Assembly: GCA_025829515.1 (NCBI GenBank)
Contig: GCA_025829515.1_4865.2
DNA: 54,940 nt
From: a phage
Reading direction: 5' to 3' (one strand)
The notes under the pieces were generated by a model. That model did no database searches. It worked only from the letters and a program-made list of their open reading frames with translations, and was not told where the DNA came from. This document shows, one piece after another, positions 8,856 to 27,283 of this stretch (position 1 is its first letter; each line of letters begins with the position of its first letter). The position numbers were made by a program, and so were the translations under genes.

Positions 8856-9343
8856 CGACGATAGCGTTCGATGGAAAAGTCTTAGCTGCTGACGGTCAGC
8901 TGACCCGCGGGTCGAATATCTGCAACCTGAACACCCAGAAGTTATTCATCTGCCCTTCTGACGAGGAATGGTGGATTACTGGTGAACGGATTGTGGCGTT
9001 CGGAGTAAGCGGTGACATCACAGGACAGTTGGCCCTGCTGGAAACGGTCCGCTTGAGACCCGGCTACAAGGGGTTAACGCAAAGCTCGCAGTTACCTGCG
9101 AAGATGGATTTTACTTTCCTGATGCTTCTGGCCTCAGGAAAAGCGATAGTCGGCGGAAAACGTGAAGACGACGTGACGTTGTGGTGGAGTGAAGCCACAC
9201 CGCCTCTGGCAACCGGAAGCGGTTACGAGTATGCGTTGGGTGCGATGAAGATGGGCGCGAATGCGGTTCGTGCTGTTGAGATTGCGTCCGAATGCGATAT
9301 CTACACCGGTGGTGAGATTAGCACTTACGAATTACGGAGGTGA
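8852..9343 (+). CDS. HslV-like Ntn-hydrolase (proteasome beta-type peptidase homolog)
   Basis: Start MTTIAFDGKVLAADGQ matches the HslV N-terminus MTTIVSV...AGDGQ with Thr2 as candidate nucleophile; GSG motif (LATGSGYEYA) and C-terminal CDIYTGGEISTYEL resemble HslV; ATGA overlap with upstream gene. Confidence 0.75.
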   Translation: MTTIAFDGKVLAADGQLTRGSNICNLNTQKLFICPSDEEWWITGERIVAFGVSGDITGQLALLETVRLRPGYKGLTQSSQLPAKMDFTFLMLLASGKAIVGGKREDDVTLWWSEATPPLATGSGYEYALGAMKMGANAVRAVEIASECDIYTGGEISTYELRR

Positions 9344-9435
9344 ATCATGCGGGAGTCAGAAGCACGCAAGCTTGACCCCATCAATCGCCTGCGATAACGG
9401 GGTAGCGCATCCGTATAAACACGTTCAAGAATTCT

Positions 9436-9511
9436 AGGAAAGTGACGCAATTGGTAGCGTACCGGTCTCCAAAACCGGCTGTTTAGAGTTCGAGTCTCTA
9501 CTTTCCTGCCA
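9436..9511 (+). tRNA. tRNA-Trp (anticodon CCA)
   Basis: Hand-folded cloverleaf: acceptor aggaaag/ctttcct, D-stem acgc/gcgt, anticodon stem ccggt/accgg with loop ctCCAaa, 5-nt variable loop, T-arm tagag-ttcgagt-ctcta, discriminator G and encoded CCA. Confidence 0.8.
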
Positions 9512-9577
9512 CATTTAGCCAACAAGGCCATGATTCAAAGCAGAATGACACCGAATGTCTAACTGCGGAGAATAATC

Positions 9578-9820
9578 ATGAACTTGTATTTGCTAGAACG
9601 AACTGACGATATCGGGTATGATGAATTTGATTCCATAATCGTGGCGGCTCCTACGGAGCAAGCTGCGTGTGCAATTCCTCCCGACTGTGGCCATTGGATG
9701 GACTGCCGCTGGTTACCGAAAGAGCGCTGGGATGAAGGGCTTACCCTGACCGTTACTCTTATCGGTACTACGCACTATCCTGCTGGGACCGTCGTTCATG
9801 AATCGTTCAATGCTGGCTAA
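9578..9820 (+). CDS. hypothetical small protein, paralog of the 8280..8855 repeat domain
   Basis: 80-aa ORF starting MNLY like 8280..8855; GGAG RBS; followed by hairpin 9823-9840. Confidence 0.45.
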   Translation: MNLYLLERTDDIGYDEFDSIIVAAPTEQAACAIPPDCGHWMDCRWLPKERWDEGLTLTVTLIGTTHYPAGTVVHESFNAG

Positions 9821-10865
9821 ACAGTGGGCTTCGGCCCACTAACCCTATTCGAGCCGTGATACTTACTCAGATTGTGCGGGTTGATGTCCCGCATGAGCCG
9901 GTAGCAGCTCAGACCTACGGTAGACCAATAAATCCGTAGCAGCCAGGTACACAAAGTACCAGGTCGCTTGTACAGGATGCTGGGTATCTGACCGGTCATA
10001 ACCTCATTCGATACGAGACACGTTTATGCATGAAATACTCCAGTACATCAGGATGTTGATTTCCAACGTCCGGTTCTGGGTATTCAATCATGTTTGGTTT
10101 ACAGGCGATGGGTTTTCCCGCAAGGGCCCCACTTACAGACTGGCGTCTCCACGACAACCGTCCCTAGGGGACAGGCAAGCACCGGCCCATTAAGCCGCTA
10201 CGCTACGCCTGTAAATCCACAATCTGATAACCGAATGGGATTGAGTTCCCAGTGTTAGGGTGACTGTGTGTCACCGTAGGCGCGGTACCTCATACGGCCG
10301 GTACGCCACGAATGTACGTGATAGCGGGTGGTGCTTGGAGACGCTAAGACCTGACCTTGCGGCCAGGCTCAGAAGAAGAAGTCCATCACCCGCATTCAGA
10401 AATGAATTTAGGTTAATTATTATTTATGGAAGTGATGAAATCGTTTACGTGATAACTTAGTAGTATGCAACGAACAATACCAGAGTGACTTTACGAGGTT
10501 ACTGTGGTATATGTCGGTGCGCCGGGCAACGTGTTGCCGCAGATAAGCCCGAGGGAGCTGAGTGCACTAACACACGCCGGGATGCATCGGCACCTTACAA
10601 TGGGAGCGCTGTCACCATCAGTGATGACAGGAGTGAAGGATTCGTACCTCACTCGACTGGGCGGAAGCCTGGGCGTTCCCCCATCTTCACATCATGGCCG
10701 GCTTGCCGGTTCAACGTAGACGTCTCGTAAGAGATTTCCAGTCAGGCAACTGATAACACACCTAAGCGTCGACCTTGGACGTATGGTGTCTGGTTAAGTC
10801 CCCCGAAACGGAAACCAGTAGGGGTGTGGTACGTTGAGTGTAACTATCATGATGCCATGAACAAT

Positions 10866-10935
10866 GGCTTTGTAGCTCAGGTAGGTAGAGCAACCTCTTC
10901 GAGGAAGGTCGCCGGTTCGAGTCCGGTCAAAGCAA
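10866..10935 (+). tRNA. tRNA-like element with canonical acceptor, D and T arms but a truncated anticodon arm (possible pseudo-tRNA)
   Basis: tagctcaggtaggtagagc D-arm and gccggttcgagtccggt T-arm are tRNA-typical, but only 14 nt (aacctcttcgagga) lie where an 18-nt anticodon arm should be; G1-A72 mismatch. Confidence 0.4.
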
Positions 10936-11009
10936 GAGCAGCGAAGTTAGAGGAATTAACACCCGACTCATAATCGGATATTTCGACGGTTCGAATCCGT
11001 CCGTTTGCT
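10936..11009 (+). tRNA. tRNA-like element, possible tRNA-Met/Ile2 (anticodon CAU), non-canonical D and acceptor arms
   Basis: T-arm gacgg-ttcgaat-ccgtc and anticodon arm cccga-ctCATaa-tcgga are recognisable; acceptor pairing imperfect and the 5' boundary is uncertain. Confidence 0.35.
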
Positions 11010-11390
11010 CGCCCCATTTGTGTTATCCTTATCCCGAAGGCATTCGAAATAAGACGCGTATCCACACACGGGTCAAGGGTAACACGAACCACTTCCGCGG
11101 TCACCGTGTCCATTGCCGCCTACCTGCATGGGCTGTCCTCCGACACGGTGACTTCGGGCCAACTTACAGGCCAGGGCCGTTTGGGTTTTTCTTACGCATC
11201 CATCCAGAGCCACCTCGCGCCCTAGTCTGTATACCCCTTTTCTGTTCCTGGTTTGCCAACTAAATCAATTAAGCCTGGTGCGTTGCCCTGGGAACAGAAA
11301 AACTTATTCGGTTACACACCGAACCCACCCACGAGGGATATGTCGTGGACTACCAATAGAAGCAGCAATAGTAGTAAGAAGGAAAGCAAC

Positions 11391-12215
11391 ATGTTTACAG
11401 TTAAACGTGTGATTGATGGTGACCGTATTATTACCGAACATGAAAAGGTACGTATCGGTGACCGTAAGTCTCGTGTATTCCGCGAGGCATTAAAAATGCT
11501 CGAGAACGAGCGCTTCGACATCGTTGTCGATGATGAAAAGTTAGCCCTTAATCCGGGGTTAAAACGCGTTGCCCCTGATGTGCCTGATCCGAACACCATG
11601 CATTTGTCTGACTACTATAGTTGGGCGTATCGCAGAGAGAAAAGTTGTGAAGACGCGCATTTATACTTAAAACAGCTGTTCCCTAACCTGGTATTGCCTG
11701 ACCATGATTCAGTCGGCGTTATTGATAACGACTATCAAACGTTTATGAACTATGTAGAGGCTAATCCGGGCGTAACTCGCATTTTGGTTTTAGCTGAAAA
11801 CCACAAGTCCACTGATGCTATTGTAAAACTGGTTATGAGCCAGCTTGCAGACGAAGGCACGATGTACAGCATCGACTACTATAAACCTTCTCCGGATAGC
11901 GATCTCGGTATTATTGTTTATACCTACGGTGAGTTACAACAGGTCGAACTGGAACCTGGTCCAGCGATGGAGTTCACCGACGTCCAGGAGCAGTCTCAGT
12001 GGGTTAACGGTGAGTGCGTTGTTACTGTTTTAAAAGGCGCGCGCCCTGGCGACCGGTCAGTCGATGAACTGATTGGCGCAATGTGCATCGAAGAAGAATC
12101 TGGATACGATCCTGATAACCAGATCAGTACCGGTGCGTTGTACGAACTGTTTTATAAAGGCGACGAAGTCTACGTGGTTAACTCTCACGGTAAGACTACC
12201 GACGTCCTTCGCTGA
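11391..12215 (+). CDS. hypothetical protein
   Basis: ORF track starts at 11253, but the first 46 codons are low-complexity; the in-frame ATG at 11391 has AAGGAAAG upstream. Confidence 0.5.
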   Translation: MFTVKRVIDGDRIITEHEKVRIGDRKSRVFREALKMLENERFDIVVDDEKLALNPGLKRVAPDVPDPNTMHLSDYYSWAYRREKSCEDAHLYLKQLFPNLVLPDHDSVGVIDNDYQTFMNYVEANPGVTRILVLAENHKSTDAIVKLVMSQLADEGTMYSIDYYKPSPDSDLGIIVYTYGELQQVELEPGPAMEFTDVQEQSQWVNGECVVTVLKGARPGDRSVDELIGAMCIEEESGYDPDNQISTGALYELFYKGDEVYVVNSHGKTTDVLR

Positions 12216-25331: not shown

Positions 25332-27283
25332 GTGAGAAAGGTACCAAAATTCTACGGAATATCCGGCCGGTTGGTTAGTCAGGATAACTATTTGTCCGAT
25401 TTGCAAATAGAAGCTGCAGCCAAAGGTATTAAACCACCCACTATTATTAACGATGTCGCCGTTAACGGGGATGCTATCGAGGTTGCTGAACTTATCGATC
25501 GCATGGTACAGAACAGAATCGTTGACGAAGAACTGAACTCTGCACCGATTTGTAGTTTGGATTGTCCGGCACCGATCGCGCATCGTTACAATCTCGGTTG
25601 TAAGTGTCCGACGTGTGGCTATGTTGTAACTGAACATCGAATTGAATCCGATGTCTGGTTACGTGCACCCGATGAAATGGGTAACTTCGTCAACCCACGA
25701 TTCTGGGCAATGTTCAATGCTTTCTTTAATAGCAAGTTGAAGAAGTTTGAACGTAACAAGGTCACTATCGAACGCGGTAATGACTTGATGATGTGGATGA
25801 TTGACCCGTATTACCGTATAGAAGAACCAGACGGTAAACGCGCACATGCTGTGAAACGTGTATTGGAAGAACATGGTTTCGTTCGTGGCTTGCGCAATCT
25901 GGTTGATAACCACGTTAGTATCTTTAACATCCTTACCACGCCAGAAGCCTGGAAGGAAATCTTCGCACCTAATCGGCATAACGCCGCTGAAGGTGAACGC
26001 TTACGTTTACAATGGAAGGAGCTATTCGAAACGCAACGTCACGCATTCTTCCCAAGACACTTACCGCTAATCTCCTCTAAACTTATCGTTACTGAGGAAG
26101 GTCGTCGTGGTGTCATGGTAGACCCAGTGTTCACGGGTGCTATTGATGCGGTGAAAAATATCGCGTTGCTCTATACGCGGCGTAAAGCGATCGAACCACG
26201 TTTTCTGATTAGTCGTGCTTTGAAGGCGAACCGTCAGCTAACGTACTTCCACATGGACTTCCGTCGTGAGTCTATGGAAGGTAAACCGGGTGACTATCGT
26301 GCGAAATTGGGTTCTACCCATATCCCGTTCGGTGGTCGTGCAACCATCTCACCTATCTCAGAACCACATGATGCCTGGAAGTTAAAAGCACCATGGCGTT
26401 GGATGGTTGGGTTGATGTCGACCCACATCGAGAACAAACTGCTACGACGCGGTTATTCGTCACGGCAGTGTGAACGTATCGTTGCGAAAGCGGCAATGCA
26501 GTATGACCCGCTTGTAGATGAAATCTTTAAAGAACTGATTCGTGAATCCCCAGGCGGTCTTGGGATCATGGTCATACCGTTACGTAACCCAACGCTGGTA
26601 CAGTTGTCTATTCAAACGCTGTACATCGATGAAGTTGTTACCGATGTTAACCAGTGTTCGCTGCGTATCTCTGACCGTGTGATCAAGATGGCTAACGGTT
26701 CGAAAAGAGCCCCATCGGACGGGAAACCTCTGATGCGTATTCTCCTGAAATGCTGGGAAACCCTAAAGCGTATCTACCAGAAATGGGGACGAAAGTCTGA
26801 AACAACAGATACGATGACCTACGCTAAACAATACTGCTAACGGTTGTGATAATGGGTAATCAGCAGCGAAGCCTCGTGAGAGGAACGTTCAACGACTATC
26901 GCTGAAATGCGAGTAGGGGTCCCAGTGGACTTCGAAGTGGGAGAACACCTAAGGCGATAGCTATGGTGAAGATATAGTCTGTGCCTTATCGAGAGATAAG
27001 GAGGGTGTCTTAGCACACCTGCTGTATACGGAAACGGTATACGGTGGACAAACAGGATTTCGATGGCGACCAGTTCCAGGTACGTTTGCCAGTCGATGAA
27101 ACTGAGATGAAGTTGGCGCTCCAATTCCGTCCAGATAACGGCTTTATGTCTTCTACTGATGTGGACCGCGTAGAACACGGCATGGTTTTACATAACGAGC
27201 TAATCAGTATGCAGAACCAGTTCCTTATTGAAGCAGATGAGGATGATGAAGAAGGCATTCCGTTGGAAGCGGTGATGGGCTAA
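25332..27283 (+). CDS. multisubunit RNA polymerase beta'-like N-terminal fragment, interrupted by a group I intron (exon 1 ~25332..26662, exon 2 ~27037..27283)
   Basis: Exon 1 has a beta'-type zinc ribbon (CSLDCPAPIAHRYNLGCKCPTCG), FRRESMEGK...GGRATISPISEP and IPLRNPTLVQLSIQ (cf. E. coli NRAPTLHRLGIQ); downstream frame encodes DFDGDQFQVRLPVDETEMKLALQF (cf. [26 protein letters not shown]); the two parts are in different frames ~370 nt apart and the second has no RBS. Confidence 0.65.
26663..27036 (+). ncRNA. putative ORF-less group I intron (boundaries +/- ~10 nt)
   Basis: Core elements in canonical order: P-like ggacgggaaa (26717-26727), Q-like aatcagcagcgaagcc (26858-26873), R-like gttcaacgactat (26887-26899), and aagatatagtc (26969-26979) identical to the Tetrahymena intron S element; gactat and atagtc can form P7; a U-ended exon 1 and G-ended intron restore the frame. 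Confidence 0.55.

Follow-up and report, generated by a model that had tools for sequence, protein, structure and literature searches.

Phage T4 and related phages make dimeric tRNA precursors, such as tRNA-Thr-tRNA-Ile(CAU) and tRNA-Pro-tRNA-Ser, in which spacers are shorter than 5 nucleotides (nt). To be processed, these dimers require host RNase P, an intact tRNA structure and the addition of CCA, and damage to the tRNA structure lowered the amount of mature tRNA (PMC11143913). Two further T4 RNAs, RNA C and RNA D (species 1 and 2), still have no known function (PMC3014915). Outside the phage world, mascRNA and menRNA, from MALAT1 and MEN-beta, mature through RNase P, RNase Z and CCA addition and are not aminoacylated (PMC11693755). 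Here we describe two adjacent tRNA-like elements, TLE1 (10866-10935) and TLE2 (10936-11013), that lie head to tail on the plus strand of a 54,940-nt stretch of phage DNA (contig GCA_025829515.1_4865.2 of NCBI GenBank assembly GCA_025829515.1, hereafter the window). Features are on this strand unless stated otherwise. Judged by its sequence, the window comes from an SPN3US-like jumbo phage of the Seoulvirus type, since positions 9300-11400 are 99% identical to Salmonella SPFM phages and 96% identical to SPN3US in a DNA search.

Our combined analyses show that TLE1 and TLE2 are a conserved, previously uncharacterised variant of phage tRNA-cluster RNAs, and are neither an artefact nor simple decay. 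They make up one conserved unit, the core of a tRNA cluster that has otherwise mostly been lost in this lineage. In the reading that we prefer, to which we assign a probability of roughly 55%, the pair would be transcribed as a dimer in which TLE2 is a tRNA-Ile2-like decoder and TLE1 is a non-decoding, structured partner in its processing.

An anticodon-less element abutting an element with a CAU anticodon

Both elements are recognised by the Rfam tRNA model (RF00005, gathering threshold 29 bits), TLE1 at 40.9 bits (10866-10935, E 2.8e-5) and TLE2 at 30.6 bits (10938-11009, E 0.019), the E values being for the whole window. By comparison, canonical tRNAs from the clusters of related phages score 47-76 bits. 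An initial sequence-only reading had proposed two tandem tRNA-like elements with canonical T arms at this site, and this description stands. Neither is returned as a standard, high-scoring tRNA: ARAGORN with default settings detected only a tRNA-Trp and reported no transfer-messenger RNA (tmRNA), whereas under relaxed thresholds it called both elements, as forced folds only.

TLE1 is a 70-nt RNA with the upper half of a tRNA and a reduced lower half. Its acceptor stem has six pairs (10867-10872 with 10928-10933) and is followed by U8 and A9. G10866 stands opposite A10934, forming a G1·A72 mismatch, and A10935 is the discriminator, A73. The D arm (GCUC-AGGUAGGUA-GAGC, 10875-10891), the variable loop (AGGUC) and the T arm (GCCGG-UUCGAGU-CCGGU, 10911-10927) complete a cloverleaf that is also the unconstrained minimum free energy (MFE) fold. 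The region of the anticodon arm measures 13 nt (A-CCUC-UUC-GAGG-A) against the normal 17, and holds a mini-hairpin with a 4-base-pair (bp) stem and a 3-nt loop (CCUC-UUC-GAGG, 10894-10904); this hairpin and the 1-72 mismatch had both been noticed in the sequence-only reading. TLE1 has no anticodon because the mini-hairpin replaces the anticodon arm, and it lacks the 5-bp anticodon stem, the 7-nt loop, U33 and the purine at 37. As read from its sequence alone, it is unable to decode.

Several other identities for TLE1 were considered and set aside. The default, relaxed and mitochondrial modes of ARAGORN gave only forced folds for an anticodon (Glu/UUC, Ser/CGA). The tRNA-like domain of a tmRNA would call for G3·U70, in place of which TLE1 has C3-G70. 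The best match to YrlA, a Y RNA-like family (RF02553), covered 10805-10921 at 15.5 bits (E 9.5), compared with a gathering score of 69 bits.

TLE2 is a non-canonical tRNA with the anticodon CAU. It is closed by a terminal helix of 8 bp with one bulged U (10936-10943 with 11002-11010), supported by compensatory changes in relatives. This is followed by a D arm with four clean pairs (GUUA/UAAC, 10946-10960) and GG in its loop, an anticodon arm with a C27·A43 mismatch (CCCGA-CUCAUAA-UCGGA, 10962-10978; CAU at 10969-10971), a variable loop of 6 nt and a T arm (GACGG-UUCGAAU-CCGUC, 10985-11001). The bases GCC, not CCA, follow at 11011-11013. The CAU loop had been seen in the sequence-only reading, which also called the D and acceptor pairing poor. 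Neither judgement holds: the D stem is intact, and the acceptor is poor only in the register used there, no longer being so because G10936 and A10937, regarded as spacer, are included in the helix.

The exact start of TLE2 depends on the rule used to number it. Anchoring on the 'RCC' motif places the 5' end at G10936 and gives an 8-bp stem, with an invariant C4-G69 and G as discriminator. A 12-bp ruler places it at A10937, giving 7 bp, a His-like G-1:C73 and A4-U69. The Rfam register starts at G10938 in the window and is the A register in Machinavirus. G10936-C11010 is paired in 16 of 16 TLE2 sequences, but the next bases are GCC instead of the CCA of tRNA-His, and the anticodon is CAU instead of GUG. 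The 12-bp acceptor/T stack serves as the ruler of RNase P, and 8-bp acceptor stems end up only in tRNA-His and tRNA-Sec (PMC11143913).

The pair is conserved in three phage genera and its stems covary

We collected 28 related loci with a sensitive DNA search, from Seoulvirus, Machinavirus, Erskinevirus and a few metagenome contigs, which with the window make 29 sources. The pair was found in the same head-to-tail layout in all 29, including SPAsTU and MET_P1_082_240 (Seoulvirus), pSal-SNUABM-04, Huxley, Caitlin, ChrisDB and the pEa_SNUABM phages (Machinavirus), and Stratton and phiEaH2 (Erskinevirus). Pattern scans of IMG/VR and metagenomes for the TLE2 anticodon arm gave only 10 loci, nearly all from the same phage group, and a search for relatives with the downstream protein returned SPN3US alone. 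The junction, A72-A73|G-A (10934-10937), has no spacer, and its AA|GA is identical in 28 of the 29 sources; the exception (L025) has AA|GU, which still pairs as U·G. Between genera, DNA alignment is limited to the TLE region, the flanks do not align, and the downstream protein is ~27-36% identical.

Covariation supports the stems of both elements. For TLE1, 18 distinct sequences were aligned and 11 real pairs scored, six in the acceptor and five in the T stem. All 198 cells of this top half (11 pairs × 18 sequences) were paired, with compensatory double changes in 9 of the 11 pairs. The covariation score was 0.641, compared with a mean of 0.253 after shuffling (0 of 500 shuffles scored as high) and at most 0.16 in controls with slid partners. 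For TLE2, represented by 16 distinct sequences, double changes were found in eight pairs (the terminal helix contributing three, the T stem four and the anticodon stem one), and the score of 0.242 was reached by none of 500 shuffles and by no slid-partner control (at most 0.074). T-stem swaps of TLE2 are found even inside Seoulvirus, from A-U to C-G and from C-G to G-C or A-U (the window against MET_P1_082_240 and SPAsTU). We relied on covariation because the thermodynamics of the dimer are uninformative on their own: the MFE fold of the whole dimer is not two cloverleaves and is no better than that of shuffled sequences (z = 0.34). The conservation of the pair exceeds chance, as it is maintained with covariation in three phage genera.

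The setting of the pair has changed considerably between lineages. Relatives have a complete tRNA cluster at this site (Tyr, Gln, Asp, Ile, Glu, Ser, His and sometimes Met and Gly) that ends in TLE1-TLE2-tRNA-Asn, a canonical tRNA-Asn usually coming next after the pair. In SPN3US-type phages, including the window, the cluster is reduced to tRNA-Trp, TLE1 and TLE2, and the Tyr, Gln, Asp, Ile, Glu, Ser, His and Asn genes are missing. The tRNA-Trp(CCA) of the window (9436-9511; called by ARAGORN; RF00005 63.6 bits) is canonical with an encoded CCA (3' sequence CUUUCCU-G-CCA). It is the sole standard tRNA remaining in the cluster region and was used for comparison.

Such losses invite the view, raised in the sequence-only reading, that the elements are decaying tRNA genes, that is, functionless pseudogenes of the lost cluster. 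The absence of an anticodon in TLE1, the bulge and near-threshold Rfam score of TLE2 in the window, and the T-stem mismatches of TLE2 in phages EC001 and 1252 would fit this explanation. We nonetheless consider decay quite improbable, as the stems covary while the neighbouring protein has drifted and the flanks have become unalignable, and as compensatory changes keep the stems paired both across three genera and within Seoulvirus. Moreover, an Rfam scan of 9300-11300 at E up to 10 detected no further tRNA relics, implying that lost genes vanish whereas the pair persists. This pattern of substitution and loss indicates that the pair is kept by selection.

Records disagree on what the locus encodes, labelling it as a hypothetical protein, tRNA-OTHER, tRNA-Asp, tRNA-Ile, tRNA-Met or nothing. 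The SPFM and SPN3US records place a 'hypothetical protein' on the minus strand here, SPN3US also having 'tRNA-OTHER'. Proteus phage 7 has 'tRNA-Asp' plus 'tRNA-Ile', and several other records are blank. A single tRNA was reported for the SPFM phages (PMC6614189). Could the region code for the annotated 78-amino-acid protein (10877-11113, minus strand), with its likeness to tRNA being incidental? An ATG-started open reading frame (ORF) does exist and appears in several records, yet we find this very improbable: the length differences among TLE1 forms are not divisible by three, so that no frame is conserved on either strand, substitutions track RNA pairing, the ORF has no Pfam match, and other annotators called tRNAs at this site. 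Indel lengths were used for this comparison, since a test of stop-free stretches in the minus-strand ORF was uninformative.

A constant acceptor end on a hypervariable body

In contrast to its top half, the body of TLE1 is hypervariable and has been replaced wholesale, even within one genus. The mini-hairpin loop varies among close relatives (UUC, AUC, UUU), and SPAsTU has the same arm with a structured 38-nt insertion. The body is a 6-bp stem with a 5-nt loop in pSal-SNUABM-04, and an irregular arm plus a long variable arm in Huxley and pEa_SNUABM_6. Caitlin, ChrisDB and Stratton have compact forms (65-67 nt) with a 5-bp hairpin for a D arm, the loop of which retains GG. Overall, TLE1 lengths of 65, 66, 67, 70, 72, 77, 92 and 108 nt were found among relatives, and the four-way cloverleaf was the MFE structure in 10 of the 12 forms folded (the exceptions being pSal-SNUABM-04 and pEa_SNUABM_6). 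The acceptor end has hardly changed: position 1-72 is an unpaired G·A in 18 of 18 sequences, A73 is invariant, and G2-C71 and C3-G70 are mostly constant, while every other acceptor pair has changed. A covariance model of the top half recovered all TLE1 homologs as well as ordinary tRNAs, and no second copy in the window.

A constant end on an exchangeable body raises the possibility that TLE1 acts in trans as a tRNA mimic, a stable anticodon-less small RNA that would engage a tRNA-binding factor of the host or phage. Candidate targets are a defence toxin directed at acceptor ends, the CCA-adding enzyme and an enzyme recognising the initiator-like 1x72 mismatch, and the position of TLE1 beside TLE2 would then be just its production route. 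Such a role would better explain why an initiator-like acceptor end is invariant on a hypervariable body that differs within one genus. The end matches part of the set read on initiator tRNA, where the 1-72 mismatch is a recognition element for the formyltransferase (PMC9976931). T4, too, makes stable RNAs from its tRNA region that have no known role (PMC3014915), and there is precedent in mascRNA, a stable, non-aminoacylated, protein-binding tRNA-like RNA (PMC11693755). However, no partner was identified, Pfam being blank for the neighbouring genes, and the variation of the body could be neutral mosaicism in a recombination-prone tRNA cluster. Furthermore, the GG start and weak acceptor end might mark the RNA for CCACCA tagging and decay, as for menRNA (PMC11693755). 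We regard a mimic as unlikely. Similarly unlikely is a broader proposal, that TLE1 represents an undescribed family of anticodon-less tRNA mimics in nucleus-forming jumbo phages of the SPN3US, Machina and Erskine types. Its members would combine a constant acceptor/T minihelix, ending in G1·A72 and A73, with a swappable body and would target a tRNA-binding factor in trans, one example being a decoy for a defence enzyme directed at acceptor ends; TLE2 would then carry an acceptor/T helix of 8+5 bp, which among tRNAs is otherwise seen only in tRNA-His and tRNA-Sec.

TLE2 resembles a tRNA-Ile2 and neither element encodes CCA

TLE2 is probably a working, non-canonical CAU tRNA rather than a defective one, and the tRNA-Ile2 type is the most likely. 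It shares an identical 17-nt anticodon arm with a chromosomal E. coli tRNA-Ile(CAU) that adjoins a tRNA-Arg, and its homologs are annotated as tRNA-Ile or tRNA-Met. Compared with the published Ile identity set (PMC9976931), TLE2 carries the determinants U12-A23, C29-G41 and C34 A35 U36 A37 A38. C4-G69 joins them only in the register that starts at G10936, in which the discriminator is G and not A73. The loop, CUCAUAA, has the expected 7 nt, U33 and a purine at 37. Within TLE2 the anticodon arm is the most conserved block, with C27·A43 being invariant. An initiator tRNA-fMet was rejected: CAU is present, but the anticodon stem reads C·A, C-G, C-G, G-C, A-U and does not have three G-C pairs.

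Conservation of the anticodon stem-loop, including C27·A43, would also be expected if TLE2 did not decode but served as a decoy or resistant substitute for a host tRNA (of the Ile2 or Met type) hit by an anticodon-directed nuclease or another tRNA-targeting defence. The non-canonical body of TLE2 is compatible with this, and the phage does not over-use AUA, which weakens a rationale of codon supply. We give this alternative little credence. A resistant substitute must still decode, which merges it with the explanation that we prefer, and we know of no nuclease specific for tRNA-Ile2.

Encoded CCA separates the pair from its neighbours. It was found in 48 of 48 canonical tRNAs from the relatives' clusters and in the tRNA-Trp of the window, and never in homologs of TLE1 or TLE2. 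TLE1 is followed by GAG, and the TLE2 helix by G-C-C(C) or, in a few homologs, by G-C-U or G-U-C.

A proposed processing pathway

How might such a pair be matured? In the preferred reading, TLE1 and TLE2 would be transcribed together as a head-to-tail dimer, as are the T4 dimeric tRNA precursors, and host RNase P would recognise each tRNA-shaped body. A single RNase P cut at A73|G would generate both the TLE1 3' end and the TLE2 5' end. As neither element encodes CCA, host 3' trimming and the CCA-adding enzyme would be required to finish both RNAs. TLE2 would then be charged and, after lysidine modification, read AUA. TLE1 would be a structured upstream partner that secures the correct processing and stability of TLE2, and the part of it under selection would be the acceptor/T-arm half and the D/T elbow, which processing enzymes recognise. 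The suggestion of a processing signal or mimic in the sequence-only reading is compatible with TLE1, which does not decode and keeps the parts that tRNA-processing enzymes read. TLE2 is better described as a probably working CAU tRNA.

The features that RNase P reads bear on the invariant end of TLE1. Positions D73-C74-C75 of the substrate pair with a GGU motif of the enzyme, and leader bases -1 and -2 contact its RNA subunit (PMC11143913). In TLE1, the invariant G1·A72 and A73 would keep A72 and A73 single-stranded and so provide two unpaired leader bases for RNase P at TLE2; they would be needed because there is no CCA or other spacer between the units.

A number of observations weigh against this scheme. 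Some concern the structure of TLE2, which in the window scores lower against RF00005 than any of its homologs. It has A or G in place of U8, and instead of a 7-bp acceptor and the normal 12-bp stack it has a bulged 8-bp helix stacked on a 5-bp T stem, 13 bp in all; in the window, the bulged base is accompanied by the short variable loop. Its discriminator is G or C, compared with A73 of Ile and Met tRNAs, and an A is found there only in the homolog of one E. coli record (L029). AUA enrichment was not found in the phage, where this codon makes up 8.7% of Ile codons and 4.8 per thousand overall. Other observations concern relatives. The loop of TLE2 has C33 and C38 in Huxley and Parshik, and likewise in Machina as judged from an identical DNA-search match, and in EC001 and phage 1252 its 3' half is rearranged, leaving mismatches in the T stem. 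Because close relatives carry such lesions, TLE2 may be dispensable or failing in some lineages. Nor is TLE1 strictly required for TLE2, since the TLE2 homolog of the E. coli record, which has an AAU anticodon, occurs without TLE1. A processing-helper role by itself also leaves the invariance of G1 unexplained. Lastly, a search of the literature on this phage group turned up no RNA-level results (expression, end mapping, modification or charging), and the papers examined give only numbers of tRNAs called by gene finders.

Some of these loci have further peculiarities. In EC001 (L026) and Salmonella phage 1252 (L027) the 3' half of TLE2 is a different sequence (CCCUGCCACUUGCUC), which mispairs in the T stem and looks like a recombination or co-conversion tract. 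Phage 1252 also has a 540-nt ORF inserted directly 3' of TLE2 (L027, 826-1365). Four Machinavirus phages have a long extra arm in the variable region of TLE2. The E. coli record (NZ_CP173450.1, 221,873 bp) carries a plasmid annotation but has the look of a related jumbo-phage genome; its TLE2 homolog is annotated as tRNA-Ile and directly follows a gene that we read as hslV-like and the record calls hypothetical.

The locus offers a tractable model, as SPN3US has genetics, for the role of non-decoding tRNA-like RNAs in phage tRNA clusters, a question that dates from T4 RNA C and RNA D. It could likewise serve to study how RNase P handles dimers without a spacer, and whether decoding is possible for a tRNA that has an 8-bp terminal helix and lacks U8. 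A trans-acting role of TLE1 as a mimic, if real, would bring an RNA into the conflict between jumbo phages and their hosts. At a practical level, recognising the conserved tRNA-like dimer corrects the inconsistent pipeline annotations of this locus.

Neighbouring elements

Additional structured elements lie close to the pair. An 82-nt element at 10602-10683 has the same ACAATGG leader as TLE1. It folds into a cloverleaf (z = -2.6) with an 8-bp closing stem (GGGAGCGC/GCGUUCCC), three hairpins and a free CCA tail, one hairpin having a GGAA tetraloop in place of a T loop, and it has no Rfam match. The element is found in SPAsTU with a G-C to A-U swap, and is missing from SPN3US through a deletion between two ACAA(T/C)GG repeats. 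ACAATGG was tried as a promoter or processing motif and rejected, as its 9 matches in the window are no enrichment over the 7.5 expected. In Machinavirus, a third, unannotated cloverleaf lies just upstream of TLE1, at ~1422-1499 of the pSal-SNUABM-04 locus (L004) and also in L005, L006, L019 and L025. It has the acceptor GGUUCCC/GGGAAUC, a hairpin with a GG-containing tetraloop where the D arm would be, a 7-bp arm with a 12-nt loop, the T arm GUGG-UUCAACU-CCAC and an encoded ACCA.

Directly 3' of the tRNA cluster, a long hairpin (11017-11090) is kept in nine relatives from three genera. Its RNAalifold consensus has 17 pairs, six with compensatory changes, that close a conserved UCCCGAAG...CAUUC interior; possible identities are a third structured RNA and a regulator or terminator of the cluster. 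Between this hairpin and the next gene is a perfect 12-bp inverted repeat, GGTCACCGTGTC...GACACGGTGACC, with a loop of ~37 nt (11095-11157). The protein encoded downstream of the pair (11394-12215) is ~76% identical to its closest relatives, compared with 99% for the upstream DNA, and is a local divergence hot spot. Pfam gave no match for it, nor for any of the eight neighbouring or intron-flanking ORFs. Scans for sigma-70 promoters and terminators stayed at background level, and the YrlA, plastid untranslated-region and microRNA matches in 9300-11300 were far under the Rfam thresholds.

Farther away, a group I intron (26680-27001; RF00028, 69.4 bits) lies inside a gene for an RNA polymerase beta subunit. 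It is present in EC001 and SPLA3, and is polymorphic and probably mobile, since SPN3US and several SPFM and SPLA phages cover only ~86% of the query.

Comparison with known systems

The acceptor end of TLE1 resembles that of initiator tRNA-fMet in its 1-72 mismatch with A72, its A73 and its mostly conserved G2-C71 and C3-G70. The variable loop and 3' end (AAGGUCGyCGG...GCAA) look similar to those of the E. coli initiator. However, TLE1 has G1 rather than C1, C11-G24 rather than R11:Y24, no CAU and no three G-C pairs in an anticodon stem. Methionylation of TLE1 is not expected, because the initiator features other than the acceptor end are absent. TLE2, in turn, shares with the lysidine-modified tRNA-Ile2 (ileX/ileZ type) its loop CUCAUAA, C29-G41, U12-A23, the anticodon arm and the annotation of its homologs, but differs in its G or C discriminator, 13-bp stack, acceptor bulge, and lack of U8 and encoded CCA.

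The T4-type dimers are similar in arrangement: two tRNA-shaped units lie head to tail in a phage tRNA cluster, with spacers of 0-3 nt (1 nt between tRNA-Thr and tRNA-Ile(CAU)), and the downstream T4 tRNA-Ile, like TLE2, has CAU and no encoded CCA. The D arm and CCUC/GAGG stem of TLE1 resemble T4 tRNA-Thr (CCUCA-CUUGUAA-UGAGG), and the gene order is reminiscent of Thr-Ile(CAU)...Asn. The T4-like phage NBG2 has Thr-Met(CAU)-Tyr-Asn, and blastn aligned the window pair to it across the Thr|Met(CAU) junction. Based on the dimer order, the NBG2 alignment and the tRNA-Thr-like D arm and stem, the pair likely goes back to a Thr-Ile2-Asn module, the first member of which would have lost decoding and kept its shape. 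It departs from the T4 dimers in having an upstream unit with no anticodon loop and a conserved 1-72 mismatch, no spacer or CCA between its units, and an 8-bp terminal helix in TLE2; processing is known for the T4 dimers, and for TLE1-TLE2 we infer it.

T4 RNA C and RNA D are, like TLE1, non-decoding small RNAs at the end of a tRNA cluster that abut a tRNA (1 nt after tRNA-Arg), and a tRNA-like T arm lies close to the 3' end of RNA C. They are longer (139 and 119 nt against 70 nt), have no Rfam tRNA match at E up to 1 against 40.9 bits for TLE1, and have no sequence similarity to TLE1 that can be seen by reading, without formal alignment. In the T4 locus, our model of the TLE1 top half matched true tRNAs only. 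The resemblance is confined to position and function, and both T4 RNAs are much less tRNA-like.

mascRNA and menRNA are eukaryotic and unrelated to TLE1 by descent. They share with it an acceptor stem, a T arm, two elbow guanosines of the D loop and a compact arm in place of the anticodon arm (PMC11693755). Their 5' RNase P cut also forms the end of a neighbouring RNA (PMC11693755), as would the cut proposed here, the neighbour being an upstream long RNA in their case and a downstream tRNA in ours. These RNAs would thus provide a close functional analogy for TLE1.

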